Notes: generated by a model not told the origin, from the letters alone. A stretch of DNA of 64,000 bases from an uncultured bacterium (GCA_963798465.1 CAWCTC010000001.1:390970-454969), one strand, 5' to 3'. Positions 3,304 through 57,987 are shown, counted from the first letter of the stretch. Translations and numbers: made by a program.

Positions 3304-5757
<2,454 letters not shown>

Positions 5758-6068: not shown

Positions 6069-6108
6069 ACAGGGCGGCTACGAAAGTAGCCGCCCTGTAA
6101 TTTTGTTG
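6069..6108 (+). terminator. Rho-independent terminator (ACAGGGCGGCTAC-gaaa-GTAGCCGCCCTGT + T-run)
   Basis: 13-bp perfect stem, GNRA-like loop, then aattttgttg. Confidence 0.8.
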
Positions 6109-6160
6109 ATTATCCACTAGCGATATTTTTTTTCTAAGGTTATAATATACCAATAAAAAC

Positions 6161-6688
6161 ATGTTTTCAGATCCTGAAAAAAATATCGAGCAATTTGACT
6201 TGGGCAGCGGCAATTATGTTGCGGATTTTGGAGCCGGTTCTGGTTTTTATTCTTTTTCTGCGGCAGAAGCTGTTGGAAATAGCGGAAGAGTTTATGCCGT
6301 TGATGTTCAAAAGGATTTGCTTGAAAGATTAAAAACCGAAGCGAGAAATATAAGACATTTGAATAATATAGAAATCATTTGGGCAGATTTAGAACATTTG
6401 GGCGGAACACGTTTGAGAGAAAATTCTATGGATGCTGTAATTGTTGCAAATGTTTTTTTTCAGTTGGAAAATAAAGATAATGCCTGTTTGGAAATAAAAA
6501 GAATATTAAAACCCGGAGGCAGAGTTCTTTTTGTAGATTGGGCGAGCTCATTTGGTGGCATCGGTCCGCAGTCACAGCATGTGTTTGACGAAGATATGGC
6601 AAAAAAACTTTTTGAAAAACATGGATTCAAAGAAGACAGGGCAATAGGTGCCGGCGCACAGCATTATGGAATAATTTTTAGGAAATAA
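6161..6688 (+). CDS. Class I SAM-dependent methyltransferase
   Basis: DFGAGSGFYS glycine-rich SAM motif I, acidic motif II (VYAVD), KPGGRVLFVDW. Confidence 0.7.
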   Translation: MFSDPEKNIEQFDLGSGNYVADFGAGSGFYSFSAAEAVGNSGRVYAVDVQKDLLERLKTEARNIRHLNNIEIIWADLEHLGGTRLRENSMDAVIVANVFFQLENKDNACLEIKRILKPGGRVLFVDWASSFGGIGPQSQHVFDEDMAKKLFEKHGFKEDRAIGAGAQHYGIIFRK

Positions 6689-6697
6689 TTTTTTAAA

Positions 6698-7999
6698 ATG
6701 AATCAAAACTCAAACAAATTCAAATTGATATTCATGGTTGTTTTTGGATTTTTTATACTTCTCGGCGTAGTTGCTTTTTCCACTTACAAGGGAAGCAGCA
6801 GTTCAAGCAATCTGACTCAAATTTCAATCTGGGGAACTGTAGACCAGACATTATTTAATAATTATATTTCAAAATATAAGCAGGATACCGGCACTGATTT
6901 GAAAATAACTTATACGGAAAAAAGTTTGGACTCTATAGACGGAGATTTAGTCGAAGCGATGGCAACTGGAAAAGCACCAGATGCAATTTTGATTCCGCAA
7001 GAACTTGAAGACAGATATTTGGATAAAGTTTATATGATTACTTCAATTCCTCAAAGAACTTTTGAAGATACATTTGTCCAGGAAGCCGAATTGTACATAC
7101 AGCCGAATGGCATTTTTGGTTTACCATTTTTTGTCGACCCTATGGTCATGTATTGGAATCAGGATTTATTTTCTAGCGCGGCTATAGCTCTTCCACCAAC
7201 GGAATGGGCGCAGTTTCCTTCACTGGCAAGCAAACTTTCAGAAAGCGATAATAATGCAAACATAATAAAAAGCGCAGCTTCATTTGGAGAATTTGAAAAT
7301 GTCGACAATGCCAAAGCTCTTTTGAGCACAATGATAATGCAAGCCGGCAGTCCGATAGTTTCAGCAGATAGCCAAGGAAATCTTGCATCAGCCTTGGATG
7401 AAAAATCTGCAACAGATGTTATGGTTCCGGCAGAATTGGCTTTGCAATTCTTTACGGGTTATTCCAATCCTAAAAATTCCGTATATTCTTGGAATATATC
7501 ATTGCCTTCTTCAAAAGAATCATTCCTGGCTGAAACTCTGGCAACATATTTTGGTTTCGGTTCTGAATACAGCGATATTCAGGAAAAAAATCCAAATCTT
7601 AATTTTGATGTCGCGATGGTTCCTCAGACAGCGGATGCAACTGCAAAAGTCACTTTTGGAGAGCTTTATGGTTTTGCAATTTTAAAAACATCGCCGAATA
7701 TAAGTCAGGCGCTCAATACTCTTTTGACATTGGTCAGTGCCAATTCAGTTTCTGAATTTTTGCAATTGGATTATGTTGCTCCGGCCAGAAAAGATTTGCT
7801 ATCCGCCGGTTCACAAGACCCGATAAAAACGGTAATATATAACTCAGCGCTTATTTCAAAAGGTTGGATTGATCCAGATTATCAAAAGACCAGCCAAATA
7901 TTCCAAGATATGGTTGAGAATGTAACAACGGGCAGAGACACAGTTGAAGATTCTGTTTCAAATGCCAGCGACCAGTTGAACAGTTTATTTCTGCAATAA
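6698..7999 (+). CDS. Extracellular solute-binding protein (ABC-type, family 1-like), N-terminal membrane anchor; orphan (no permease/ATPase adjacent)
   Basis: 433 aa, N-terminal TM, SBP-like length and composition; no transporter partners within the window. Confidence 0.5.
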   Translation: MNQNSNKFKLIFMVVFGFFILLGVVAFSTYKGSSSSSNLTQISIWGTVDQTLFNNYISKYKQDTGTDLKITYTEKSLDSIDGDLVEAMATGKAPDAILIPQELEDRYLDKVYMITSIPQRTFEDTFVQEAELYIQPNGIFGLPFFVDPMVMYWNQDLFSSAAIALPPTEWAQFPSLASKLSESDNNANIIKSAASFGEFENVDNAKALLSTMIMQAGSPIVSADSQGNLASALDEKSATDVMVPAELALQFFTGYSNPKNSVYSWNISLPSSKESFLAETLATYFGFGSEYSDIQEKNPNLNFDVAMVPQTADATAKVTFGELYGFAILKTSPNISQALNTLLTLVSANSVSEFLQLDYVAPARKDLLSAGSQDPIKTVIYNSALISKGWIDPDYQKTSQIFQDMVENVTTGRDTVEDSVSNASDQLNSLFLQ

Positions 8000-13261: not shown

Positions 13262-13424
13262 CAAAATCTCATTTATGAGATTTTTCTGATGAGGGAATCG
13301 AAAGGCGCAGGTATATTGCGAGTAGCAACGAGCAATACCGAGCCGGGGTCGAGAAAATTTCTGAGCGACGGCGAAGAAATTATTCGTGACCGATTCATAA
13401 TTAATTCTCATCACCCGCAAAATA
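13250..13424 (+). repeat. 17-18 bp direct repeat of the tRNA-Trp 3' end (CTCATCACCCGCAAAAT at 13251-13267 and 13407-13424), plus an inverted copy of the T-arm/acceptor segment (GATGAGGGAATCGAA at 13289-13303)
   Basis: Exact sequence identity read directly; a terminator hairpin (AAATCTCAttTATGAGATTT) lies between DR1 and the inverted copy. Confidence 0.8.
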
Positions 13425-13426
13425 TT

Positions 13427-14143
13427 ATGAAACTAAATATTAAATTTAAACTTAATAAACAGTTAGATAAAAATATGACATTGATTTTTTTAGGTAGCGG
13501 AGAAAAGGGCGGAGTTGATTTTTCAAACAGCGTTACTTTTTATCATCCTGAATTAAAGAATGTAATTGACAGCAATAAAGAAGAAAAAATAAAATTTATT
13601 AGTGATTATTTTGATAAGTTTTATAAATTACACAGACAAGAGTTTAAAGACTTGATTGCAAAGATGCAGAGTAGTTGGAAAAATATAGAACCAAGTTTTA
13701 TCAATGAATTGAATAAAACTTTTAAGGATCCACAAAAACCAAATGGAAAATATATAGGTTATTTATCCGCAATAAATTGTAATCCTAGATTTCTTAAAGA
13801 TAAAACATATCAAATATTTTATGGTCATAAAGCTGGCTCAAGCTATGTGACTGTGCACGAAGTTTTGCATTTCTTTTTCTATGATTATGCTGTGAAAAAA
13901 TATCCAGAAATTTTTGGAAAACTAGATACAAATAATGGAATATTTTGGGATTTAGCAGAATTATTTAATGCTGTAATTATGTCTTCAAAAGATTTTATGG
14001 GTGGAAAATACGCAAGTATAACTGAACCTTATCCAGCTCATCAAAAATATTTTGATAAAATGAAGGAAATTTGGAATAAAAATCCAGATATAGATAATTG
14101 GCTTATTGAAGCTTATGGTTATTTATCAAAGTATAACAGCTAG
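13427..14143 (+). CDS. Hypothetical protein with an HExxH motif (HEVLHFFFYDY); the ORF-track start at 13289 is probably too far upstream
   Basis: ORF 13289-14143; first in-frame ATG after the tRNA repeat region is at 13427 (MKLNIKFKLNK...); lies just past the duplicated tRNA 3' end. Confidence 0.5.
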   Translation: MKLNIKFKLNKQLDKNMTLIFLGSGEKGGVDFSNSVTFYHPELKNVIDSNKEEKIKFISDYFDKFYKLHRQEFKDLIAKMQSSWKNIEPSFINELNKTFKDPQKPNGKYIGYLSAINCNPRFLKDKTYQIFYGHKAGSSYVTVHEVLHFFFYDYAVKKYPEIFGKLDTNNGIFWDLAELFNAVIMSSKDFMGGKYASITEPYPAHQKYFDKMKEIWNKNPDIDNWLIEAYGYLSKYNS

Positions 14144-18663: not shown

Positions 18664-20824
18664 TCAGGAATCGTTTTTGTTGCCTTCCATCATTAGCGAG
18701 CCGCAGATTGTACAAAGCTTGCCAGTTGGTTTCGCTTTGATTGCGTATTTACATTTTGGATAATTTGTACAGCTATAGAAAATTCCAAATCTCCCGCGCC
18801 TTTCTGTCATCTCTCCGGCTTTGCAAATCGGACATTGAATTCCAGTTGTTGGATTTAGATTTGCGTCTTTTTTAATATATTTACATTTTGGATAATTTGA
18901 ACAAGCAATAAACTTTCCAAATTTTCCTTCACGTTCCATAAGTTTTCCAGTTTTGCATTCAGGACACATTTCACCAGTTTCTTTCGGTCCTTCCATTTCT
19001 TCACCGGTCATTTTTCTTGCACCCAAACAATCCGGGTAATTTTTACAGCTCAAGAATTTTCCATTTTTAGAAAGTTTAATAATCATCGGTCCTCCGCATT
19101 TTGGACACTTGATGCTCGCGTCTGCTTCTCCAAGATTTGTAACTTTTTCAATTTTGCCTTTTTCTTTTACTTCTTTTGAAAATGGTCCGTAAAAATCTTT
19201 CAAAGTTTTTACATATTCTCTTTTTCCAGTTGCAATATCATCAAGCTCGTCTTCCATTTCTGCTGTGAAAGTGTCGCTGATATATTCAGGAAAATTTTTC
19301 TCAAGGAAATTGCTGACGACTTCGCCGGTGTCGGTAGGGAAAAGCGCTTTGTTAATCTTTGTTAACATAGCCTCTGTCCTCGATTGTTTTCATAATCGAA
19401 GCGTAAGTTGAAGGTCTTCCGATACCTCTTTTTTCAAGTTCTTTGATGAGTCCGGCTTCAGAATATCTTCCTGGTGGCTCGGTAAATTTTTCTGTGCTTC
19501 TGATTTCAATCAAATTTAATTTTTCGCCTTCTGAAACTTTTGGAAGTTCAACATCTCCGCCGTTTGCATCAGGATCAGCTTTCATCCAGCCATCGAAAAG
19601 CACTCTTGAACCATTGATTGAAAAAGTTGGAATTTCCTTGCCCGTAGAAACTTCTTCGGAAGTTTTGGCGGGGCCCGCTCCGACAACTGCTGTGATTTTT
19701 GTTCTCAAAACTTTTGCGTCTGTCATCTGTGAAGCGACAGTTCTTTGCCAGATAAGTCTGTAAAGTTCTTTTTGTTCGTCCGTGAATCCAGCGATTTCTT
19801 TGCTTGCATCTGTTGGTCTGATTGCTTCGTGAGCTTCCTGCGCGTTTTTGCTTTTTGTTTTGTAAATATTTCTTGAAGAATAATTTGCTCCGTATTTTTT
19901 GGAAACCATTCCGGCGATTTGAGTCAAAGCTGTTTCGCTCAAATTTGTGCTGTCGGTTCTCATGTAAGTAATGTATCCGGCTTCGTAAAGTTTCTGAGCG
20001 ATTCCCATGGTTCTTGAAGGAGAAAAGCCGAGACGAGTGCTTGCAGTCTGTTGCAATGTTGAAGTTGTGAAAGGAGCTTTCGGACTTCTTTTTGTTTCTG
20101 TTTCTGTGACGGATTTTACGGACCAGTCTTCTTTATTTCCGACTTCAAGTATTTTCTCAACTTCTTTTATATCTCGAGGTTCTTTGTCGCAGCCCAAAAG
20201 TATTTTAATTCCGCCGGCAGTTTTTACATCAGCTTCAATAATCCAGAATTGTTCCGGCTTGAATGCGCGGATTTCTCTTTCGCGTTCCATAATAATACGA
20301 AGTGCAGGGGATTGAACGCGTCCAGCAGAAAGTCCATAACGAACTTTTTTCCAGATAAGTCCAGAAAGATCATAACCGACAAGTCTATCAAGAACTCTTC
20401 TAGCTTCTTGAGCTTTTCTTAAATTTTCATCAATTTCTGTCGGATGTGCGATAGCTTCTTTGATTGCGTCTTTTGTAATTTCATGGAAACGAACTCTTTT
20501 TGGATTTTTTAGTCCGACGGCTTCTTTGATATGCCATGCAATAGCTTCTCCTTCTCGGTCAGGGTCGGTTGCGAGCAATACTTCGTCAGCTTTTTTAGCT
20601 AAGGATTTTATTTCAGCAACAACCTTTTCTTTTCCAGGGGAAATAACGTAATGGGGAATAAATCCGCCAGGAATATCAATGGCGTCCTTGTTTGATTTTG
20701 GCAAATCGCGAATATGCCCGACGCTTGCTCGGACTGTATATGCACCTTCCAAATATTTTTCTATCGTCTTCGCTTTTGACGGAGACTCAACGATTAAAAG
20801 TTTCACCGGGTAGTGAAATTTCAA
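18664..20824 (-). CDS. topA: DNA topoisomerase I with one frameshift near 19352-19368 separating the catalytic part (490 codons) from the C-terminal Zn-ribbon part (234 codons)
   Basis: TOPRIM N-terminus (KLLIVESPSKAKTIEKYL), active-site region, C-terminal repeated CxxC zinc ribbons (CPKCGG..., CPECKTG..., CPICKAG..., CTICGS); the two ORFs are in different frames and overlap by 17 nt. Confidence 0.85.
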
Positions 20825-20953: not shown

Positions 20954-21010
20954 GAAGTGCATTATTACACACAAATGTTATTTTGTGCAAATTTATGATA
21001 TATTTTATGT

Positions 21011-21487
21011 ATGAAAAACAAAACTTATGGAGAATATTTTAATAACCCAGTTGTTCTAGTTTTATTATTAATTTTAATAGTTGTTGGCGGTTATTTATTA
21101 TTTAATACAAAATTACCTAATGAACCAATTACAACTGAAACACAATCAGTAGCATCGACTTCTTCAGCCTTAAATACACAGCAAACTCAAGTATCGAATA
21201 ATGATTTATTTGAAAAACAACAATCATGTTCCAGATTGTTAAATGATTTAGAGAATAGATTAAAAACAGAAAATTATAAGTCTACTGACTTTATTGTTGG
21301 TTATAGCCCAACTCTAAATGCATGCATAAGCGGTTATACTGCAAAAGACTCAAATAATAATGTTATTCTTTACACGATAGTTAATTTGAATACCAATCAA
21401 GATATTTTACCTGCTTTTTTACCTACTGAATATACAAAATATGAAGCAAGGTTATCAGAACTTACGGACGGTCAGATTTCTAAATAA
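21011..21487 (+). CDS. Hypothetical membrane-anchored protein (very AT-rich)
   Basis: 158-aa ORF with N-terminal TM. Confidence 0.45.
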   Translation: MKNKTYGEYFNNPVVLVLLLILIVVGGYLLFNTKLPNEPITTETQSVASTSSALNTQQTQVSNNDLFEKQQSCSRLLNDLENRLKTENYKSTDFIVGYSPTLNACISGYTAKDSNNNVILYTIVNLNTNQDILPAFLPTEYTKYEARLSELTDGQISK

Positions 21488-21498
21488 AAATTAAAATT

Positions 21499-21942
21499 AT
21501 GAATAGTTTGTATATTTCAATAGCTTCCGCAATAATTTCTATCGTATCGGCCATGATTGCATTTCTATCTTTACATAATAGTAAAAGGAGTTATCAGTTA
21601 ACACAAACTCCAATAATAGTACCGATTATAGTTAAAAGTGGTGACAAAACAAATGTAACAATTTTAAATAATCACAAAACTGGAATAGCTAAAGATTTAT
21701 CAATACTTTTTAAAAGAGGTAAATTAACTTCTGACATCTATAAATCTGATGATTTGCTAACTCCAAATACAAGAATAGATATTCCAAATATCAATGAGAG
21801 CTTAGATGGTTGTATTTTTGAAATAAAATATAAAAATTTTTTTGATCAACAAGTATGCATAAAAGGTACTGTAACTCACTTACCAAATGGACTTTTTGAT
21901 TTACAAAATCAAAAATTAGTAATAAAAGGTTTAGTCAAATAA
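21499..21942 (+). CDS. Hypothetical membrane-anchored protein (very AT-rich)
   Basis: 147-aa ORF with N-terminal TM. Confidence 0.45.
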   Translation: MNSLYISIASAIISIVSAMIAFLSLHNSKRSYQLTQTPIIVPIIVKSGDKTNVTILNNHKTGIAKDLSILFKRGKLTSDIYKSDDLLTPNTRIDIPNINESLDGCIFEIKYKNFFDQQVCIKGTVTHLPNGLFDLQNQKLVIKGLVK

Positions 21943-21946
21943 TTAT

Positions 21947-22008
21947 TTTACATTAATCTAATCTCTCCCATACTCTCTTTAATCAATCCTTTAATTTCCA
22001 TTATTAAT
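21947..22008 (-). repeat. dprA 3'-end repeat, copy 1 (short, about 58 bp): att-like core TTAMATTAATCTAATCTCTCCCAWACTYTCTTTAATCAAWCCTTTAATYTCCATTAT
   Basis: Matches the first about 58 nt of the native dprA stop-codon/3' coding region (24049-24106). Confidence 0.85.
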
Positions 22009-22048
22009 TTTTTGATTAGCTTTTCGTTTATATAAATATTATAATCTC

Positions 22049-22504
22049 GTGATGGACCTGGAAAAAATAAAACAAATAGCAAAAGAAATTTTTGAAAAAC
22101 AAAAAACTATTTATTGTCCATTCTTTAAGACAAATGTTAATTTAAACTCTGATGGTTTAAATCATCTACAATTTAAAGGTAATAGAATGCCTAGAAATTT
22201 AGATGAACAAAGATTAAAACTTACGTTATTACCAAAAGCACTTCAGGTAATTAAAAATGCTGGCACTCTTCAAGAATATAGAAAAGGTATTGAGAAGATT
22301 GGGAAAAAAGGTAATGACGGTTTTTACAAAACAAAAGATGTAGAATATTGGGCTTTCCATGCAATTATTGGAAAAGATTATCTTAGAAAAATAGTTGTTA
22401 TCATAAAGAAAATAGGTGATGGACAAATTATTTTTTGGAGTGTAATGCCCCACAAAAAATTTAATAATCAAAAGTTATACGATGATGGTATTGAAGATTT
22501 TTAG
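22049..22504 (+). CDS. Hypothetical protein (cassette 1 cargo)
   Basis: 151-aa ORF between repeat copies 1 and 2. Confidence 0.45.
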   Translation: MMDLEKIKQIAKEIFEKQKTIYCPFFKTNVNLNSDGLNHLQFKGNRMPRNLDEQRLKLTLLPKALQVIKNAGTLQEYRKGIEKIGKKGNDGFYKTKDVEYWAFHAIIGKDYLRKIVVIIKKIGDGQIIFWSVMPHKKFNNQKLYDDGIEDF

Positions 22505-22514
22505 ACAACAAAAA

Positions 22515-22603
22515 AACCCTCTATATAGAGAGTTGTTTTGTTATGCCTGCCTTCAGCTTAGGTAATCCTTAGCCGAAAAGGGGCTTGCGCCCACAGGCAT
22601 ATG
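22515..22603 (+). terminator. Terminator-like hairpin (CCCTCTATATAGAGAG) followed by a second nested stem-loop region (ATGCCTG...GGGCTTGCGCCC...CAGGCAT)
   Basis: Perfect palindrome CTCTATA/TATAGAG then T-rich; a second IR at 22543-22603. Confidence 0.5.
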
Positions 22604-22647
22604 TGCATAATATCACAATTATACAATAAAGCAAAAGTTATCAACAA

Positions 22648-22788
22648 TATTAAATTAGTCTTATTTCTCCCATACTTTCTTTAATCAATCCTTTAATTTC
22701 CATTATTGAAATTATTGTGGATGCTTTCGAGACGGGCATTTTGAGTGCGCGGATGAGCTCATCTTTTTCCATTGGTTCAAAAATATTT
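22648..22788 (-). repeat. dprA 3'-end repeat, copy 2 (long, about 140 bp; about 88% identical to the native copy)
   Basis: Minus strand encodes MEKDELIRALKMPVSKASTIISIMEIKGLIKESMGEIRLI* against native ...VSNASTI...ESLGEIRLI*; most substitutions are synonymous. Confidence 0.85.
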
Positions 22789-22805
22789 TATGTTAGAATG
22801 TTTAC

Positions 22806-23288
22806 ATGGAAAAGATAAATATCTATATTGACGGAAATAATTTATATCGTGGGGCAAAAGCTCTTGGTTTTGAAATTGATTATAAAAAATTTAGAGGCTG
22901 GCTTCGTCAGAAATATAACCCACAAAATATTTATCTGTTTATCGGACTTGTTCCAGACAGATTAAAATTTTACCAACATTTACAAGAATGCGGTTTTATT
23001 TTGATTTTTAAACAAACTATTTCTGTTAGCGGAATAATAAAAGGGAATTGTGATGCTGAACTTGTATTAAAAACAGTTTCGGATTTTTACACAAAATCTT
23101 TTACTTCTTGTATTTTGATAACGGGCGATGGTGATTTCGGATGTTTAGTTGAATTTTTAAAAGAGAATAATGCAATTAAATATATTATTTCTCCAGATAA
23201 AAATAAATGTTCTTTTTTATTGAGAAATAAAAAAGTTGAAACAGTTTTCTTGAATGATTTGTATCATAAGTTTTCAACTCATATATAA
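22806..23288 (+). CDS. NYN-domain (LabA-like, PIN-fold) putative RNase (cassette 2 cargo)
   Basis: INIYIDGNNLY N-terminal motif and ILITGDGDFGCLV motif typical of NYN/LabA (PF01936). Confidence 0.65.
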   Translation: MEKINIYIDGNNLYRGAKALGFEIDYKKFRGWLRQKYNPQNIYLFIGLVPDRLKFYQHLQECGFILIFKQTISVSGIIKGNCDAELVLKTVSDFYTKSFTSCILITGDGDFGCLVEFLKENNAIKYIISPDKNKCSFLLRNKKVETVFLNDLYHKFSTHI

Positions 23289-23292
23289 AGAA

Positions 23293-23335
23293 AAAGACCC
23301 CGATGCAGACGGATCTGCATAAGGATCTTTTTCAT
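23293..23335 (+). terminator. Rho-independent terminator (ATGCAGA-cgga-TCTGCAT within AAGACCC..GGATCTT + TTTTTCATGG)
   Basis: Hairpin plus T-run after the NYN gene. Confidence 0.65.
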
Positions 23336-23401
23336 GGTTACCAACGTATTATATACCAGGTTGTATAATATGCAAGCACCTGCGAGATAACTAAAATTGG
23401 C

Positions 23402-23458
23402 TTATATTAATCTAATCTCTCCCAAACTTTCTTTAATCAAACCTTTAATCTCCATTAT
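23402..23458 (-). repeat. dprA 3'-end repeat, copy 3 (short, about 57 bp)
   Basis: TTATATTAATCTAATCTCTCCCAAACTTTCTTTAATCAAACCTTTAATCTCCATTAT. Confidence 0.85.
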
Positions 23459-23505
23459 ATTATTAACATTTGCAAATTATATCAAAATAATCCATAATCA
23501 TTCGT

Positions 23506-23811
23506 ATGAATACACCGCAAAAAGGTTCAGTCAGATGTATAGTTTTTAAGGACGGCGACACGTGGTATGCTGTTGGCTTGGAATTTAATATTGTTGAATC
23601 GTCTGATGACCCAACTGTTGCCTATAATAATTTGCAGTCAGCCATGCAGGGGTATGTTGAATCTCAAAGAAAAATAAAAGGTTCACGCGTTGCTCCTTTA
23701 AATCAAAAAACGGATAAAGAGTATGAAGATTTGTGGGCAAATTTAAACTCAAAGAAATCTGTTAAATCTCCTTATCAAGTAAAATATTTTGGTGTTACCA
23801 GAATCTCATAA
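23506..23811 (+). CDS. hicB: HicB-like antitoxin (cassette 3 cargo)
   Basis: CIVFKDGDTWYAVGLEFNIVESSDDPTVAYNNLQSAM resembles the HicB/UPF0150 N-domain; sits directly upstream of a HicA-like gene with a 3-nt gap. Confidence 0.5.
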   Translation: MNTPQKGSVRCIVFKDGDTWYAVGLEFNIVESSDDPTVAYNNLQSAMQGYVESQRKIKGSRVAPLNQKTDKEYEDLWANLNSKKSVKSPYQVKYFGVTRIS

Positions 23812-23814
23812 AAT

Positions 23815-24048
23815 ATGCCTAATGGTATTTTAAATTGGGCTTTTCGTGATGTTGAAACTTTTCTGAAGGAAAATAATTTTTATTTGAATCATACGACTGG
23901 CAGTCATTATTTTTATGTTGGACATGTGGGCGGAATAATGAGACAGGTTTGTGTACCGATGCATGGAAATTTAGCTTTGAAACCGAGAACGATGAAAGGT
24001 ATTATTTTGCAATCAGGAATTTCAAAGGAAGAATGGCTTGAGAAATAA
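23815..24048 (+). CDS. hicA: HicA-like mRNA interferase toxin (cassette 3 cargo)
   Basis: GSHYFYVGH...VCVPMHGNLALKPRTMKGIILQSGI matches the HicA (YcfA) family core GSH..., PxHG..., L..GTL..IL.QAG. Confidence 0.6.
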   Translation: MPNGILNWAFRDVETFLKENNFYLNHTTGSHYFYVGHVGGIMRQVCVPMHGNLALKPRTMKGIILQSGISKEEWLEK

Positions 24049-24049
24049 T

Positions 24050-24895
24050 TTAAATCAATCTAATCTCTCCCAAACTTTCCTTAATCAATCCTTTAATTTC
24101 CATTATTGAAATTATTGTTGAAGCATTTGACACTGGCATTTTGAGTGCTCGGATGAGTTCATCTTTTTCCATTGGTTCATTAAGTATTTTTATTACAAGA
24201 AGTTCTTCTTCTGAACAATCAGAATATTTTAGTTCTAGGTTTTGAGGCACATCATTAATTTTGAATCCGAGTGCCTCAAGAATATCTTCGCTATTTCGGA
24301 CAGGCGTTGCTCCAAGTCGAATAAGCATATTTGGTCCTTCGGAATTTTTTGAAAAGATTGAGCCGGGAACTGTGAGAACATCGCGATTGTATTCTGTTGC
24401 AAATTTTGAAGTGATAAGTGTGCCGGATTTTATTTCTGCTTCTATCACAAGCACAGCATGAGAAAGTCCTGCCATGATTCTATTTCTTTGTGGAAAGCTG
24501 TATGGAGTTGCGCGAAATTTTGGTTCAAATTCTGAGATGAGAGCACCGCCTGCTTCGAGGATTTTTTCGGCGAGCTGTTTGTGTGTGCTTGGGTAGAGAA
24601 CTGATTCATCAAGGCCTGAGCCAGGAACCGCAATCGTCATTAAGCCGGCTTCTAAGGCAGATTTGTGTGCAATGCTGTCGATTCCTAAAGCCAAGCCGGA
24701 AACGATACATATATTGTATCCGCGAAGACCAGAGATAAGTTTCTCGCAAGCGTCTTTGCCATATTGAGTATATTTGCGAGAGCCAACGACGCAAAGCATT
24801 TTTGTGTCAGGCGATGGAAGTTTGCCTTTTATATAAAGTTTTTCTGGTGGGTCGGCGAATTTCTCGGAGCATTTCCGGGATTTCTTCACCATCAA
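24050..24895 (-). CDS. dprA: DNA processing protein DprA (Smf), Rossmann-fold + C-terminal winged helix
   Basis: VVGSRKYTQYGK..., SGLALGIDSIAHKSAL, GGALISEF motifs of the DprA family; its last about 130 nt form the native copy (24049-24178) of the repeat found in copies 1-3. Confidence 0.85.
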   Translation of the reverse strand: MMVKKSRKCSEKFADPPEKLYIKGKLPSPDTKMLCVVGSRKYTQYGKDACEKLISGLRGYNICIVSGLALGIDSIAHKSALEAGLMTIAVPGSGLDESVLYPSTHKQLAEKILEAGGALISEFEPKFRATPYSFPQRNRIMAGLSHAVLVIEAEIKSGTLITSKFATEYNRDVLTVPGSIFSKNSEGPNMLIRLGATPVRNSEDILEALGFKINDVPQNLELKYSDCSEEELLVIKILNEPMEKDELIRALKMPVSNASTIISIMEIKGLIKESLGEIRLI

Positions 24896-24988
24896 AGTTT
24901 TTCAATTTCAAAATCTTTTAACATTTGAGTTTATTGTAACATCTGATAGAATAAATTGAAGTCAAAATATAACATGATAATGTGGATT

Positions 24989-25052
24989 GTGTCTTTGCGA
25001 GCGTAGCGAAGCAATCCAGAATCTGGTTTGCTTCGCTACGCTCGCAAAGACG
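24989..25052. repeat. Palindromic intergenic element, copy C (near-perfect 28-bp arms, short loop) in the dprA/serS divergent region
   Basis: TGTCTTTGCGAGCGTAGCGAAGCAATCC-agaatctgg-TTTGCTTCGCTACGCTCGCAAAGACG. Confidence 0.85.
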
Positions 25053-25085
25053 AAAATTTATAACTTTAAAACTTTTCAATTAATT

Positions 25086-26366
25086 ATGCTCGATATAAAA
25101 TTCATCAGAGAAAATAAAGATCTCATCATAGCCGGCGCACAGAAAAAACATATAAAGTTTGATCCGAGCGAACTTATAAAAGTTGATGACAGAAGAAAAG
25201 AACTTTTGACTGCGATAGAAGCGAAAAGAGCGGAACAGAATGATGTTTCAAATCGTCTGCCTCAGCTCAAAGATGCCGGACAAAAAGCTGAGCTGATTTC
25301 AGAAATGAAAATTTTGAAAGAAAATTTGCAGAAGGAAGAAGAATATTTGAAAGAAGTGATGAAAGAATGGCAGACTTTGATGCTTACAAGTTCCAAATAT
25401 TCCCGATGTTTCTGTTCCAGATGGAAATAGCTGATGCGGACAATAAAGAAGTAAAAGTTTGGGGCGAAATTCCTAAGTTTGATTTTGCGCCGAAGGATCA
25501 CATTGAACTTATGGAAAAACTTGATCTTGCCGATTTTGAAACCGGTACGAAAGTTGCAGGTTTCCGCGGATATTTTTTGAAAAATGAAGGAGCTGAACTT
25601 GAATTTGCAATCTGGCAACTCATCGACTGATTTGTTCAGAACAAAACATCCTGAATATTCAATAATGATCGTTCCATCTCTCGTAAAAAGAGAAACGCTT
25701 TTGGGAACAGGATATTTGCCACAAGGTGAAGAAGAAATTTATCAAACGCAAGACAATGATTACTTGGCTGGAACTGCAGAAGTCGCAACGATGAGCTATT
25801 ATTCTGACAAAACTTTGAAGAAAGAAGATTTGCCTAAAAAAATGCTTTCATTCTCGCCATGTTTTCGAAGAGAAGCTGGAAGTTACGGAAAAGATGTCAA
25901 AGGACTTTATCGAGTTCATGAATTTTTTAAATTTGAGCAAGTAATACTTTGCGAAGCTTCGCACGAGACAAGTGTTAAATTTCATGAGGAACTTTTGGCA
26001 AATGCGGAAGAAATTTTGCAAGCGCTCGCACTTCCATATCATGTCGTTGTAAATTGCGGAGGAGATTTGGGACTTGGCCAGGTGAAAAAATATGATATCG
26101 AAACTTGGATGCCGTCAAAAAATAAATATGGCGAGACACATTCTTGCTCATATTTTCACGATTTCCAGACAAGAAGATTAAATATCAGATACAAAGATAC
26201 TGATGGTAAAATGAAGTTTGCGCATTCGCTTAACAATACTGAAGTCGCCACGCCAAGAATTTTGATTCAGATACTTGAAAATAATCAGCAAGCAGATGGA
26301 ACGATAAAAATTCCAGAGGCACTAAGAAAATATATGGGAGGGAAGGAATACATCGGAAAAAAATAA
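25086..26366 (+). CDS. serS: Seryl-tRNA synthetase, interrupted by two frameshifts (near about 25390 and about 25600)
   Basis: N-terminal coiled-coil arm (MLDIKFIREN...), then EVKVWGEIPKFDFAPKDHIELMEKLDLADFE in a second frame, then the class II core (FSPCFRREAGSYGKDVKGLYRVHEFFKFEQV, TPRILIQILENNQQADGTIKIPEAL) in a third. Confidence 0.85.
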
Positions 26367-45090: not shown

Positions 45091-45429
45091 ATGGTCAGAC
45101 AAATAATAAAAAATCAAATAGAAAAAATCGAATACAGGGAAAAGAAAATCTTTTGGTCTCTCTTCTCTGTATTTGTATTTTTCATAATTTCATATGGTTT
45201 TTTGCTGAATGGCGCAATAATGAATGCAGTTTCAAAACAAAATATTGAAGATCAGATGACGTCGCTCGGCTCGGATGTCAATTCTTTGGAATCACAGTAT
45301 TTAGGAATGGAAAACGGAATATCAATGGATTTGGCTATGTCTCGAGGTTTTGTCCAAATTTCATCGGATAAATTTGCAACAATTGAACCTGCTCAGAAAG
45401 CCTTATCATTGTCTATAAATGAAAACTAA
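45091..45429 (+). CDS. ftsL: FtsL-like bitopic cell-division protein
   Basis: 112 aa, single TM, position between rsmH and the PBP gene. Confidence 0.5.
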   Translation: MVRQIIKNQIEKIEYREKKIFWSLFSVFVFFIISYGFLLNGAIMNAVSKQNIEDQMTSLGSDVNSLESQYLGMENGISMDLAMSRGFVQISSDKFATIEPAQKALSLSINEN

Positions 45430-47180
45430 TGCTTTTCAAAATAAAGTAAGGATATTTTTTTGTTTTATCGTTCTCTTTGCTTTTCTCATGGTTGTTCGGT
45501 TGTATTTTCTGCAGATAGTTTATGGAAAAAATTATACGGAGAAAGCTAACACTCAGTACACGAATATTTCGGTAGATACTTACGACAGAGGCAATATATT
45601 TTTTCAGGATAAAGATGGAAATCTGCTCACAGCTGCTGGCTTGAAAACCGGTTATATTTTGGCGATCAATCCGAAATTGATGGCAACCGATACTGATGAA
45701 TATTACAATAAGATTTCTGCAATCATAACTATTGACGAAAGTGATTTCTACTCCAAAGCTTCGAAAGTAAATCAATCATATGAAGTCATAGCGCAGCAAG
45801 TTTCTGAAGACGACATTAAAAAAATAGATGATCTCAATTTGACCGGGACTTATAATCAGTCAAGAAAATTGGAGATATTATCCCGGAAACAGTTTGGCTT
45901 CAAATGTTGTCGGTTTTGTTGGATATGATAATAGCGGAACGACTATTGAAGGAAGATATGGACTTGAAAAATATTATGATAGTAATTTGGTAAGGAATGA
46001 CAGCGACATGTATTTGAATTCTTTTGCCGAAATATTTTCGAATATAAAAAATAGTTTTGTAGATTCCACGGATAGGGAAGCTGACATCGTAACTTCAATT
46101 GATCCGGAAGTTCAGGATTATGTAGAAAAGGAAATTGCCGCAACAAATCAGAAATGGCATTCGCAAACTACAGGAGCAATCGTGATAGATCCGATGACTG
46201 GAGAAATATATGCTATGGCAACTTATCCGACATTTGATCCGAACAATTTGAAAGATGTTACAGATGTCAGCGTGTTTGCGAATCCAATGGTTTCAAATGC
46301 ATATGAAATGGGCTCGATTATAAAACCGCTCACTATGGCTGCAGGTCTTGATTCTGGCGCAATCACTGTATCAACAACTTATACTGATACGGCTTCAATC
46401 ACAGTTGATGGAAGCACAATTCATAATTATGATGACCGTGGACGCGGAGTAATTCCAATGCAACAGATTTTAAATCAATCTTTGAATGTCGGCGCATCGT
46501 TCATCGCAACAAAAATGGGCAAGCCAACAATGCTTAAATATTTTGAAGGGTATGGAATCGGTTCTGAAACCGGAATTGATTTGCCTAGCGAGGCCGCAGG
46601 AAATATCAGCAACTTATTGGATAATTTGAATAATAAAAAACAAGTTGAATATGATACGGCATCTTTTGGACAAGGAATTTCCATGACGCCGATTATTACT
46701 GCGTCTGCCTTGTGTGTTCTTGCAAATGGCGGAAAACTTATCATTCCGCATGTCGTGAAGGAAATAGATTATAAAGTCGGTCTTCCTCAAATAATTGATT
46801 ATACAAATGAAGCGAAGCAAGTTTTGAAACCGCAGACATCGGAAGAAATTACGCAGATGCTCATCAATGTTGTCGATCAAGCTCTTGCAAACGGTCAGAG
46901 AAAAATGGCACATTACAGCATCGCGGCAAAAACCGGAACGGCGCAAATAGCCCGCCCGGCAAATGAAGGTGGAGGTTATTATACAAATGTTTATCTCCAT
47001 TCATTTTTTGGATATTTTCCTGCTTACAATCCACGCTTCCTTATTTTTCTTTACACATATGAGCCGCAAGACGATACGAATCCTCAAGCGGACGAGTATG
47101 CATCGCAGACTCTCACGGATCCATTTTTTGACATTACGCATTTCCTTATAAACTATTATCAGATACCGCCGGACAGATAA
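45419..47180 (+). CDS. ftsI: Penicillin-binding protein (FtsI-like transpeptidase) with one frameshift near about 45860
   Basis: N-terminal TM + dimerisation domain in frame a; RYYPGNSLASNVVGFVGYD... continues in frame b; SIIKP (SxxK), SLN, KTGTAQ motifs. Confidence 0.8.
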
Positions 47181-55406: not shown

Positions 55407-57987
55407 ATGAAATCAAAAACAAAAAGCACAGAATACAATCATCAGAAGATTGAGAAAAAATGGCAGAAAATCTGGAAGCTGATGAGAGTTTATAAAACTT
55501 CCGAGAAAGGCAAGAAGCCGAAATGCTACGTGCTTGATATGTTTCCTTATCCGTCGGGAACAGGTCTTCATGTCGGACATCCGAGAGGATATATCGCGTC
55601 GGATGTTTATGCTCGTTTGAAAAAAATGAAAGGTTTTAATGTTCTTCATCCGATGGGCTACGATGCTTTCGGATTGCCTGCGGAGCAATATGCGATAGCT
55701 AATAAAATTCACCCAAGAAAAGCAGTTGAAGAAAATATTAAAACTTATAGAAAACAATTAGATTTGATAGGATTTTCTTATGATTGGTCACGTTCTGTAA
55801 ATACTTCTGATCCCGAATATTATAAATGGACACAATGGATATTTTTGAAACTTTATGAGTCTTGGTATAACAAAACAAAACAAAAAGCTGAGCCGATTGA
55901 AAATCTTATAAAAATATTTGAGAAAGAAGGTAATGAAAATATCAATGCCGCTTGTTCTTCTGATGCCAGAAAATTTACAGCCGAAGAATGGAAAATCGCC
56001 GGCAATTTGGACAGGCAAAATATTTTAATGCAATATCGTTTGGCGTACCAAGGTTTTTCAGAAGTGAATTGGTGTCCGCAAATGGGAACAGTTTTGGCTA
56101 ATGACGAAATAACGACAGATGCAAATGGCAAACAAGTTTCAGAAAGAGGCGGATATCCCGTTGAAAAGAAAACCTTGAGACAATGGTTTTTGAGAATTAC
56201 TGCATATGCTGACAGATTAATCGAAGGTTTGGACGATCTGATTTGGTCTCCGCATATAAAAGAAATTCAGAAAAATTGGATTGGAAAATCAATCGGTTCA
56301 GATATTGAATTTTCAATTAAAGGCAGACAGGAAAAAATAAAAGTATTTACGACGAGAGCTGACACGCTTTTCGGAGTCACATATGTTGTGCTCGCTCCTG
56401 AATGCGATTTAGTCAAAAAACTTTTACCTGCAGTTTCAAATAGAAAAGAAGTTGAAAAATATATCGCTGATGTGAAATCAAAAACTGATGAAGATCGCAT
56501 GAGTGCGAACAAAGATAAAACCGGCGTAATTCTTGAAGGTATTAAAGCTATAAATCCTGCAAATCTTGAAGAAGTTCCTGTTTTTGTCGCCGATTATGTT
56601 CTGGCAAATTATGGAACAGGAATGGTCATGGCTGTGCCGGCTCATGATGAACGCGATTATGCTTTTGCAAAAAAATATAATATTCCGATAAAAGAAGTTA
56701 TTTCTGGCGGTGATATTTCAAAAGATGCATATACCGGAGAAGGCAAGCTTATTAATTCCGGAAAATTTGACGGAATGGATAATCTGCACGCGATAAAAAA
56801 AATCACAGAATTTGTTTTTGGAAAAATCGTCACAAGATACAAAATGCGCGATGCTGTTTTTGCCCGCCAGAGATATTGGGGCGAGCCGATTCCATTGATT
56901 CATAATAAAAATGGTACGATTACTCCCCTTAATGAAAAAGATTTGCCACTTAAATTGCCGAATGTTTCTTCTTATGAGCCGATTGGAACAGGCGAGTCAC
57001 CGCTTGCCGGCGTAAAAGAATGGGTGGAAAAAGGTTATGAGACAAATACAATGCCTGGCTGGGCAGGATCTTCTTGGTATTTTTTGCGCTACATGGATCC
57101 GCATAATAAAACAAAATTTGTCGGCGAAAAAGCAGATAAATATTGGAAGCAAGTAGATATGTATGTCGGAGGCGCGGAGCATGCAACAGGACATCTTTTA
57201 TATTCTAGATTTTGGAATAAGTTTTTATTTGATTATGGTTTAATCGTGGAAGACGAACCATTCAAGACTTATAAAAATTTGGGAATGATACTTGGTTCGG
57301 ACAGCAGAAAAATGAGCAAGAGATGGGGAAATGTTATTAATCCGGACGACGTTGTAAAAAATGTTGGCGCCGATACTTTGAGAATTTATGAATCTTTTAT
57401 GGGACCGTTTCGATCAGGAAATCGCTTGGAGCACTGACAGCATGATTGGTTCGAGAAGATTTTTGGAAAGAGTATGGAAATTGCAGGAAAAAGTTGCAAA
57501 TAAATATTCAGACAATGAAGAAGTGATTTTGCTGTTAAATCAGACGATTAAAAAAGTTGGGGAAGATATTGAATCATTCAGTGCGAATACCGCGATTTCC
57601 TCCATGATGATTCTTTCAAATCTGCTGGAACAGCAGGAAAAAATAAGCAAGAAAACTTATCTGGATTTCATAAAAATCCTTTCTCCTTTTGCTCCGCATA
57701 TTTGCGAAGAAATATGGTTCAGATTCAAAAACAGAAAATTGCTTGTTTTGGAAAAATGGCCGAAATATGATACGGCGAAACTTTATTCTTCAAAAGCAAA
57801 AATAGTCGTGCAAATAAATGGAAAGTTCAGAACGACGATTGAAGTCCCAATCGACTCTTTACAAGATGCAGTTGAAAAGGAAGCACTAAAAAATGAGCAA
57901 GTTGTCAAGTGGATTCTCGCCCAAAAAATAAATAAGATAATATTTATAAAAAATAGAATAATTAATTTTGTGGTGGCTAGTCAATAG
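55407..57987 (+). CDS. leuS: Leucyl-tRNA synthetase with one frameshift near about 57405
   Basis: HVGHPRGY (HIGH), editing domain, KMSKR (KMSKS); YESFMGPF then +1 frame DQEIAWSTDS...RFLERVWKL and the anticodon-binding domain. Confidence 0.9.

Follow-up and report, generated by a model that had tools for sequence, protein, structure and literature searches.

Evidence for serial insertion of small gene cassettes at the 3' end of dprA in a Paceibacteria bacterium

The 3' end of dprA in a CPR/Paceibacteria bacterium with a tiny genome (roughly 733 kb) appears to have received small cassettes in succession, each bringing with it a replacement for the end of the gene. Such serial, modular insertion, which had been proposed in the initial annotation of the locus, is supported by empty sites in related genomes, by single-cassette states colinear with parts of the array, and by differences between the displaced and resident gene ends that are mostly synonymous. 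Comparison between genomes shows the stacking order, the empty sites, the cassette-specific lengths of the displaced ends (here termed relics) and one clear crossover inside dprA. In the window, as the whole 64-kb stretch of DNA analysed is called here, the order from dprA outward is dprA, HicA unit, relic 3, NYN gene, relic 2, ORFan and relic 1, with units of 0.65-0.75 kb each (Table 1). The dprA gene carries DNA_processg_A and DprA winged helix domains (Pfam). Several housekeeping genes in the window are frameshifted, one of them traceable to a difference in homopolymer length, so the base-level quality of the window is imperfect.

Table 1. Features of the dprA-topA interval in the window, in order of position
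Feature	Position	Strand	Details
topA promoter region	20957..20992	-	conserved beside the variable gap in all close relatives
two orphan ORFs	21011..21942	+	158 and 147 aa; between relic 1 and topA promoter
relic 1	21948..22024	-	about 77 nt; 67/77 (87%) identical to native; stop codon kept
ORFan	22049..22504	+	151 aa; oldest repeat-bounded cassette
structured element and terminator	22507..22601	-	part of ORFan unit
relic 2	22650..22793	-	about 141-146 nt; in frame; 124/140 (88.6%) identical to native; stop codon kept
NYN/LabA-like nuclease gene	22806..23288	+	second cassette; PF01936 E = 2.5e-15
hairpin after NYN	23292..23332	.	A-run and T-run flanks; read from sequence
relic 3	23402..23458	-	57-64 nt; 52/57 (91%) identical to native; stop codon kept
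101-aa gene, putative HicB-like antitoxin	23506..23811	+	upstream of hicA
hicA, HicA-family toxin gene	23815..24048	+	PF07927 E = 4e-9; 36.9 bits (cut-off 27)
dprA	24050..24895	-	intact; PF02481 E = 6.8e-66, PF17782 E = 2e-5
working copy of repeat	24050-24195	-	last ~146 nt of dprA

The three additional copies of the gene end, all in the same orientation, were confirmed by a search with a 28-nt core, which gave four matches at three or fewer mismatches compared with none in 100 shuffles. Every copy is in frame, terminates at the stop codon and retains it. Copies 1 and 3 had both been described as short, about 57 bp, and copy 2 as long and about 88% identical; this is borne out for copies 2 and 3, whereas copy 1 was at first measured too short because an indel masks its 5' part. 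As copy 1 extends to about 77 nt, a sharp 57-nt boundary common to copies 1 and 3 was dropped. Relic 2, previously said to translate as a near-identical DprA C-terminus with mostly synonymous changes, indeed differs from the native end at 11 synonymous and only 2 non-synonymous codons (P about 2e-6), and relic 3 at 5 and 0. In the window, 19 synonymous and 4 non-synonymous codon changes separate the relics from the resident end, and in other genomes 41 and 7; pooled over all relics they amount to 60 against 11 (85% synonymous), where chance would give 21%. Because the differences fall almost only at synonymous sites, this comparison shows that the relics are earlier working ends originating from other alleles and not decayed local duplicates. 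Relic 3 is probably the former working end pushed aside by the HicA unit. The history of the locus can be read in this way, each relic preserving an earlier dprA allele as a fossil.

The serS/dprA/topA order is conserved in more than 60 species, and among these the gap between dprA and topA ranges from 14 nt to 3.2 kb. Within a single clade of Paceibacteria, the interval from the dprA stop codon to the topA promoter is a hotspot for insertion, of which the topA promoter region forms the fixed far border. Comparison with related genomes, suggested in the initial annotation as a search for empty sites or different cassettes, found both: the site is empty in L004, L009 and L020, the stop codon and topA promoter of L004 (DprA 93% identical) lying about 10 nt apart, and the cargo varies elsewhere. 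This cargo includes NYN, HicA, ORFan, Cas2-like, PIN, wHTH and DUF3267 genes, the wHTH and DUF3267 cassettes being without a nuclease. Very close relatives differ completely in content (the window, L077 and L003; L080 and L078), and Cas2-like and HicA units are present in non-sister lineages. The DUF3267 cassette group is monophyletic; as the genomes that share cassettes are in part monophyletic, some shared cassettes may have been inherited rather than transferred. Two candidates for large elements inserted at dprA, in L021 and L053, proved to be merely rearranged synteny.

Relics in the same orientation are also found in L006, L010, L014, L068/L072, L077, L080 and L085/L086. Their lengths (29, 39, 57-64, 65, 75-77, 95 and 141-146 nt) are constant for each cassette family. 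The lowest DprA identity to the window at a locus with a detectable relic is 75.6% (L085); L085/L086 aside, no relics were found in scanned loci below about 80% DprA identity and, L071 aside, no significant reverse-orientation copies in any scanned locus. Besides the relatives with empty sites there are others with one unit and one relic, and the array in the window is a stack of these single-cassette states. Positions 21931-22775 are colinear with the relic, ORFan and native dprA end of L085 (79.5% identity over 865 nt), and relic 1 matches in position and length the 75-nt relic of L085/L086. Relic 3 and its downstream terminator align with the native end of L077 and the sequence downstream of it. 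In L075 the NYN gene and 141-nt copy lie beside a different neighbour, a PIN gene, and the junction is 88% identical to that of the window over 515 nt.

One plus-strand unit had been predicted for each interval, namely an ORFan, an NYN nuclease and a HicB-HicA pair. All three units stand, as does the HicA domain, but the sequence of the 101-aa partner of hicA matches nothing in Pfam, NCBIfam or PDB; it is termed a putative antitoxin from position only, that is from gene order and from its co-occurrence with hicA downstream of dprA in L014 (77% aa identity for the partner, 69% for hicA). The hicA gene, whose stop codon abuts that of dprA, belongs to the newest cassette, nearest dprA. The NYN gene also matches the PADLOC NYN model (E = 2.1e-9) and has more than 1000 homologues in CPR, in several genomic contexts. 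The hairpin that follows it can be read as a bidirectional terminator and travels with NYN genes: it is kept after those of L077, L091 and L097, with stem changes that preserve pairing. The 151-aa ORFan has no family match and is possibly RelE-like. Its unit includes a conserved, GC-rich structured element of 58 nt (22543-22601) followed by an intrinsic terminator (22507-22542), with a minus-strand fold of -45.1 kcal/mol (z = -6.0). The element is identical in L087-L090 and shows compensatory stem changes in L112; Rfam gave no match to it, the only known RNA families matched in the region being chance miRNA-type hits on a palindrome. In L087 the ORFan unit is surrounded by a repeat of 230 nt, which was considered as another target duplication but is actually a tandem pair of leader and XRE paralogues. 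Judging from the sequence by inspection, terminators, and possibly promoters as well, seem to be part of the units themselves. The cargo is of the addiction or defence kind that had been proposed, comprising NYN, HicA, Cas2-like and PIN genes and, possibly, the RelE-like ORFan.

Recombination within dprA itself can be followed in the pair L080 and L078, which differ at 8 of 1723 nt and then at 30 of 181 nt (17% divergence) over the final stretch of the gene. The divergence begins 181 nt before the stop codon, and the content downstream is unrelated. The duplication in L080 spans only 95 nt, and the breakpoint lies well upstream of it; this proves recombination in dprA, though not necessarily as the event that inserted a cassette. 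The L080 relic looks like a hybrid. In L097 the NYN unit sits at another locus, where 29 nt from the 3' end of an S1-domain gene, and not of dprA, are duplicated beside it. No recombinase domain was found in the ORFs of the array, the flanking genes or the 10 further ORFs scanned in the window, which covers 64 kb of the roughly 733-kb genome; these 10 had N-termini unlike those of housekeeping genes, the remaining ORFs being judged housekeeping by N-terminal sequence only. No mobility genes were found among the array and hotspot cargo.

Homologous recombination in which the relic acts as a portable homology arm fits best, without a dedicated integrase being invoked, and we would give this reading about an even chance of being correct. 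Each unit would have entered with a stretch of the donor's dprA 3' end, which became the new working end, while the old end of the recipient was displaced downstream and persisted as an in-frame relic. Three such rounds would have built the stack, leaving the newest unit closest to dprA. The joining could have been carried out by the ordinary homologous recombination of the cell, acting on DNA taken up from relatives, presumably by natural transformation. The left crossover might fall anywhere in dprA, and the right crossover would occur within the relic, between that of the donor and the recipient's own dprA end; with the relic as right-hand arm, a cassette could enter any related genome, whatever lies downstream. 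Toxin-like cargo may then stabilise the units. The right arm is only 29-146 nt, so recombination should be inefficient, and as the model requires a pre-existing relic, the first duplication for each cassette type falls outside its explanation. Saccharibacteria have been shown to be competent and to insert cassettes by recombination, and the com genes are conserved throughout CPR (PMC10633639). Should ordinary recombination with a built-in relic arm be correct, it is a simple principle that may be general, and it would explain why short-read assemblies break at such junctions.

The initial annotation had favoured serial site-specific integration at an integron-like or satellite-like hotspot, with a recombinase acting in trans. 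On this explanation small circular cassettes with an attP mimicking the dprA 3' end would be integrated, as ccr-less SCC elements or CIMEs are, by a tyrosine or serine recombinase whose gene lies at another place in the genome or on a helper element. Such a process classically leaves direct repeats that rebuild the 3' end and stop precisely at the termination codon, as seen here with dprA intact; furthermore, the last 29 nt or so are common to all relics, so a shared crossover site is possible, the relics are limited to one clade, as a clade-specific enzyme predicts, and the new end is supplied by the incoming DNA. Nevertheless it seems unlikely. The 5' boundaries of the relics vary from 29 to 146 nt rather than marking a single fixed crossover or identity block, the L080/L078 divergence starts upstream of the repeat, and the L097 duplication argues against a single target, while the ORFs scanned gave no recombinase. 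Single-stranded folds, computed for both strands of each of the four copies, do not outperform those of shuffled sequences (z from -1.75 to +0.83), which disposes of an integron or attC reading. Constraint on the end of dprA at the DNA level, as a sign of an att site, is ruled out because codon identity at synonymous sites there (0.60-0.64, against about 0.5 along the gene) is equalled by peaks elsewhere in the gene. A phage or plasmid origin was rejected, as a search of viral contigs did not find the core and nothing similar to the array turned up among phage or plasmid records; so was Xer/dif-type insertion at the terminus, there being no skew switch at the locus and, on visual inspection, no dif-like palindrome in the repeat. 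A dedicated att/integrase reading is hence not supported, although if a hidden recombinase were responsible, the relics would define its target.

An old vertical arrangement, in which an ancestral duplication of the dprA end and its neighbours was followed by differential loss, cargo replacement and gene conversion, would account for the same cassette with the same relic length in distant genomes (75-77 nt for the ORFan relic in the window and L085), for the resemblance of a relic to its own genome's dprA (92% in L085) and for the monophyletic DUF3267 group. We consider it quite improbable given the wholly different content of very close relatives, the empty sites within the clade (L004, L009) and the Cas2-like and HicA units of non-sister lineages; many synonymous changes between relic and native end would, moreover, be erased by frequent gene conversion and are not the product of neutral decay. 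There is only a slight chance that a cargo nuclease or another enzyme made widely staggered cuts near the gene end, with the unit ligated and filled in so that 30-150 nt were duplicated. The duplications here, long, variable in length and without mobility genes, fit a pattern already described (PMC2853133), and both the nuclease-rich cargo (NYN, PIN, Cas2-like, HicA) and the different gene duplicated in L097 are in keeping with it. Yet this mechanism predicts identical copies that then decay neutrally, rather than differences that are 85% synonymous, and the wHTH and DUF3267 cassettes lack a nuclease. The cargo families are, in addition, known as RNases and not as enzymes that cut DNA. That mis-joins or uncollapsed strain variants created the repeats during assembly is extremely improbable: the frameshifted housekeeping genes do betray imperfect base quality, but the copies share 87-91% identity and have unique flanks, every junction is seen again in independent assemblies from other samples (the NYN gene with the 141-nt copy in L075; the ORFan with its copy in L085/L086), and short-read contigs tend instead to break here. 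The array can be taken as real and not as an assembly collapse.

Several known systems resemble this locus. Elements lacking a recombinase include the ccr-less SCC-like elements at rlmH/orfX in staphylococci and the CIMEs beside ICESt1/3 at fda in Streptococcus thermophilus, where the repeats are att cores, short and invariable, on which a known recombinase of the same species acts. These share with the dprA array the tandem arrangement, direct repeats of a gene 3' end, an intact gene and some units without a recombinase, but at dprA the relic length varies by unit, no recombinase was found in the window ORFs scanned, the units measure no more than 0.65-0.75 kb, and at another locus one type of unit is found with a duplication of a different gene. 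Prochlorococcus tycheposons and tRNA-gene islands are larger units that carry, or derive from elements with, tyrosine recombinases; they too have a hotspot at a gene 3' end, cargo between partial gene copies and cargo-only remnants, but their target is a tRNA gene rather than a protein gene. As in integron arrays, single-gene units lie in one orientation with the newest beside the entry point; by contrast, the 64-kb window yielded neither intI nor attI, the array is bordered by dprA and topA, the repeats derive from coding sequence and are not folding attC sites, and the units appear to have their own terminators and possibly promoters. A further parallel is the insertion of restriction-modification genes with long target duplication (Nobusato, Furuta and Kobayashi), for which a staggered break was proposed: the gene units are small, there is no transposase or integrase, the direct repeats exceed 30 bp and vary in length, relatives have a single copy at the empty site, the species are mostly naturally competent, and some repeats overlap a gene 3' end (PMC2853133). 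The direct repeats of 57-146 nt here (29-146 nt overall), the empty sites in L004, L009 and L020 and the lack of mobility genes are similar. The differences are that the cargo here consists of single genes of RNase or toxin type and not restriction-modification systems, that the insertions are three deep at one gene end in a CPR host, and that the two copies are different functional alleles, not a fresh duplicate.

In CPR/Patescibacteria, whose genomes are very small and contain few mobile elements that can be recognised, the exchange of accessory genes is poorly known. The dprA locus offers a concrete and repeatedly observed route by which accessory and toxin-type genes accumulate at one conserved gene junction. 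We tentatively raise the possibility that CPR run a recombinase-free counterpart of the integron, in which single-gene cassettes spread and stack behind conserved genes by means of displaced 3' end copies that serve as homology arms for transformation and the RecA/DprA machinery, the dprA hotspot being one instance. If so, this would be a general route of accessory gene acquisition in streamlined, competent genomes.

The two orphan ORFs at the topA end of the array are also hotspot content. They gave only sub-threshold family matches and no homologues in the corresponding gaps of relatives, and there is no relic on their topA side; that they are older cassettes, as first suggested, is a guess. 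Both are AT-rich and have hydrophobic N-termini that are membrane-anchoring in appearance.

The window is a low-GC (approximately 36%) segment of a Patescibacteria (CPR) genome, whose nearest relatives in the species collection carry the labels Paceibacterota, Taylorbacteria or Patescibacteria MAGs. Its dprA gene is intact, and besides the native 3' end of this gene three further copies, here termed relics, recur in the same orientation (see table; extents and identities were set by local alignment to the native end). A 28-nt core matches four times in the window at up to three mismatches, against none in 100 shuffles, and all copies end at the stop codon, which each retains. Copy 1 is indeed a repeat, as the initial annotation had it, but is longer than the short one reported, because an indel conceals its 5' part. 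The repeat-bounded intervals carry units on the plus strand. One pairs a HicA gene (PF07927) with an upstream 101-aa partner gene that matches no family; another is an NYN nuclease gene (PF01936), after which comes a hairpin bordered by A- and T-runs, read as a putative bidirectional terminator; the third is a 151-aa ORFan (ORFan151) with a terminator and a GC-rich structured element behind it. On the other side of dprA, the interval to serS holds an almost perfect 61-nt palindrome, its 30-nt arms being 97% complementary, with only chance, miRNA-type matches in Rfam; one arm has a partial second occurrence elsewhere in the window.

Features of the window and of compared loci from other genomes (L handles)
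Locus	Feature	Position	Strand	Detail
Window	dprA	24050-24895	minus	PF02481, E = 6.8e-66; DprA winged helix
Window	copy 3 (relic 3)	23402-23458	minus	52/57 identical to native end
Window	copy 2 (relic 2)	22650-22793	minus	124/140 identical to native end
Window	copy 1 (relic 1)	21948-22024	minus	67/77 identical to native end
Window	segment colinear with L085	21931-22775
Window	58-nt element and terminator	22507-22601	minus
L085	GC-rich element	6085-6195
L087	GC-rich element	6463-6575
L112	GC-rich element	4484-4590
L087	direct repeat	5429-5648; 6638-6857
L006	palindromes	dprA stop +77..+100; +545..+568
Window	dprA-serS palindrome	24991-25051
Window	partial palindrome arm	near 2664
Window	284-aa ORF	13289-14143
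Window	topA, split	19352-19368
Window	serS, split	24987-26366
Window	gyrA, split	3304-5757
Window	ftsI, split	45419-47180
Window	leuS, split	55407-57987

Five housekeeping genes of the window are split into overlapping ORFs, the split in topA being a single additional A in an A-run compared with loci L003 and L077. These are most likely long-read homopolymer errors rather than pseudogenes; the relics may thus be inexact at the level of single bases, though other assemblies show the same structure.

With one genome taken per species, a protein-guided scan gave 67 loci, approximately 60 of which keep the order serS (opposite strand), dprA, topA. The dprA stop and topA lie 14 nt to 3.2 kb apart. 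In L004, where DprA is 93% identical, the conserved topA promoter lies only about 10 nt beyond the dprA stop, and L009 and L020 resemble it; hence true empty sites exist both within and outside the close clade. On a rough neighbour-joining tree the window, L077 and L003 are closest relatives, yet differ in the contents of this gap, which come from a small common pool: a Cas2-like gene (L006, L010, L080), a DUF3267 peptidase-like gene (L005, L008, L068), a wHTH gene (L005, L014), HicA with its partner (the window, L014), two kinds of NYN gene (the window, L075, L077) and a PIN gene (L075). The Cas2-like cassette gene is also flanked by GC-rich palindromes, AAGTTCGCCATGGCGAACTT, with two copies in L006, three in L010, where one interrupts the gene, and two in L080, both AAGTACACCATGGTGTACTT. 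Within any one genome the copies thus vary in concert, resembling a dispersed REP- or MITE-type element.

An nhmmer profile built from the final 100 nt of dprA, combined with Smith-Waterman tests against shuffles, revealed more same-orientation copies downstream of dprA in relatives: L006 (95 nt), L080 (94-95 nt), L010 (53 nt, decayed), L014 (about 57 nt, decayed), L068/L072 (39 nt), L077 (65 nt, plus a 29-nt remnant beyond a hairpin) and, weakly, L008. A search for ORFan homologues added L085/L086, in which the ORFan is the sole unit and the relic 75 nt; at 75.6% DprA identity this is the most divergent locus with a detectable relic. In scanned loci with DprA less than about 80% identical to that of the window no relics were detected, though many of these loci carry insertions. 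Reverse-orientation copies gave background scores across the scanned loci, except in a 115-nt gap of L071 (z = 5.9). Short-read MAG contigs end 7-60 nt past the dprA stop in L001, L007, L022 and L034, and that of L014 ends at the expected relic position beside the HicA-partner gene. As repeats would cause such breaks, this hotspot probably breaks assemblies, and arrays are likely to be under-counted.

The relics differ from the working ends mostly at synonymous positions. In the window, the ratios of synonymous to non-synonymous codon differences are 11:2, 5:0 and 3:2, the first being that of copy 2 (P ~2e-6, against 21% synonymous expected from random changes), and five other genomes total 41 to 7. 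This implies divergence while serving as working gene ends; the relics are former dprA alleles rather than decayed local duplicates, which argues against fresh target duplication and confirms the earlier proposal that a replacement gene end came with each incoming unit. Older relics (L010, L014, L008) show decay, so relics are probably not under selection.

The states stacked in the window are found singly elsewhere. The segment holding relic 1, the ORFan, terminator, structured element and relic 2 is colinear with the relic, ORFan and native dprA end of L085 (79.5% over 865 nt); in L075, the NYN gene is joined to the same 141-nt copy (88% over 515 nt), followed by a PIN gene and topA; and relic 3 with the terminator beyond aligns with the native end and downstream terminator of L077. 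In this stack the ORFan unit came first and the HicA unit last. Together with the empty sites and allelic relics, such single states uphold the initial annotation's reading of serial insertion at the dprA 3' end.

The initial annotation attributed these insertions to a recombinase acting in trans at an att-like site. Units without recombinases do accrete at the 3' ends of protein genes, as in SCC-like elements at rlmH and CIMEs at fda, and the dprA array works like these and like tycheposon islands, but without their fixed att site. Five findings speak against a dedicated att site. Relic length is cassette-specific, ranging overall from 29 to 146 nt: 75-77 nt for the ORFan (the window, L085), 141 nt for the short NYN gene (the window, L075), 95 nt for the Cas2-like gene (L006, L080) and about 39 nt for DUF3267. 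Nor was hairpin potential found in the repeats, or unusual conservation of synonymous sites at the dprA end. In L097, moreover, an NYN unit lies convergent to an S1-domain gene, and 29 nt from the 3' end of this gene are duplicated so as to flank the unit (28/29 identical; score 26.5, with shuffles reaching at most 11.5). Lastly, the array ORFs and 10 others scanned in the window, which covers 64 kb of a roughly 733-kb contig, yielded no recombinase domain; the remaining ORFs of the window were classed as housekeeping from their N-termini by eye. A 284-aa ORF immediately after tRNA-Trp, considered as a possible integrase, matches no Pfam family. A trans-acting site-specific recombinase is hence unsupported and judged improbable, and the remaining rivals rank lower still. 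An integron was rejected, as the repeats fail the attC test; intI was not found in the 64-kb window.

Homologous recombination is given about even chances of having built the stack. L080 and L078 differ at 8/1723 positions across serS and most of dprA, but at 30/181 in the final 181 nt of dprA, beyond which their content is unrelated; the duplication in L080 spans only 95 nt. This breakpoint inside dprA speaks directly for homologous recombination. The L080 relic itself looks like a hybrid: its 5' half is similar to the relic of the Cas2 cassette in L006, whereas its 3' half is closer to native ends of the L077/L078 type. For Saccharibacteria, both natural competence and the insertion of cassettes by recombination have been demonstrated, and conservation of com genes extends across CPR (PMC10633639). 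A donor fragment of dprA 3' part, cassette and relic would pair on its left anywhere in the recipient dprA and on its right, through its relic, with the recipient's own dprA end. Resolution would insert the donor gene end and cassette, leaving the recipient end as a new relic, whatever lies downstream, and repeated cycles would stack cassettes. Such recombination would account for the stack order, allelic relics, cassette-specific relic lengths, breakpoint inside dprA and absence of a recombinase. The first relic of each cassette type is outside its reach; illegitimate joining anchored by homology, or a recombinase, is possible there.

The nearest described pattern is the insertion with long target duplication of restriction-modification genes, which occurs without mobility genes and mostly in competent species (PMC2853133); the dprA array differs in its other cargo, in being stacked and in that the two copies are allelic. 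It is a real, recurrent feature, and a variant of known gene-end insertion hotspots.

Two of the units have features of their own. The 58-nt GC-rich element, which comes after all ORFan151 homologues examined, has a closing stem of 9 bp and two hairpins, one of GNRA type; an intrinsic terminator follows it, and Rfam has no match. Its sequence is unchanged (100%) where identity of the ORFan protein is as low as 72%, and at 62% protein identity its stems carry two compensatory changes; it may be a small RNA that partners the ORFan, such as an antitoxin. A direct repeat of approximately 230 nt on both sides of the XRE-ORFan unit of L087 was rejected as a target duplication, being the common leader, apparently structured, of two tandem XRE paralogues (64% amino acid identity). 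The short NYN gene belongs to a very large family (>1000 proteins, approximately 80% identical across many CPR lineages), with homologues (L091-L111) in unrelated contexts, such as rpsG/fusA, rpsB/aaRS and beside Band_7. Where the sequence of the locus was read (L077, L091, L097), the gene comes with a conserved terminator hairpin, and these unrelated settings and the accompanying hairpin suggest a widely travelling single-gene unit.
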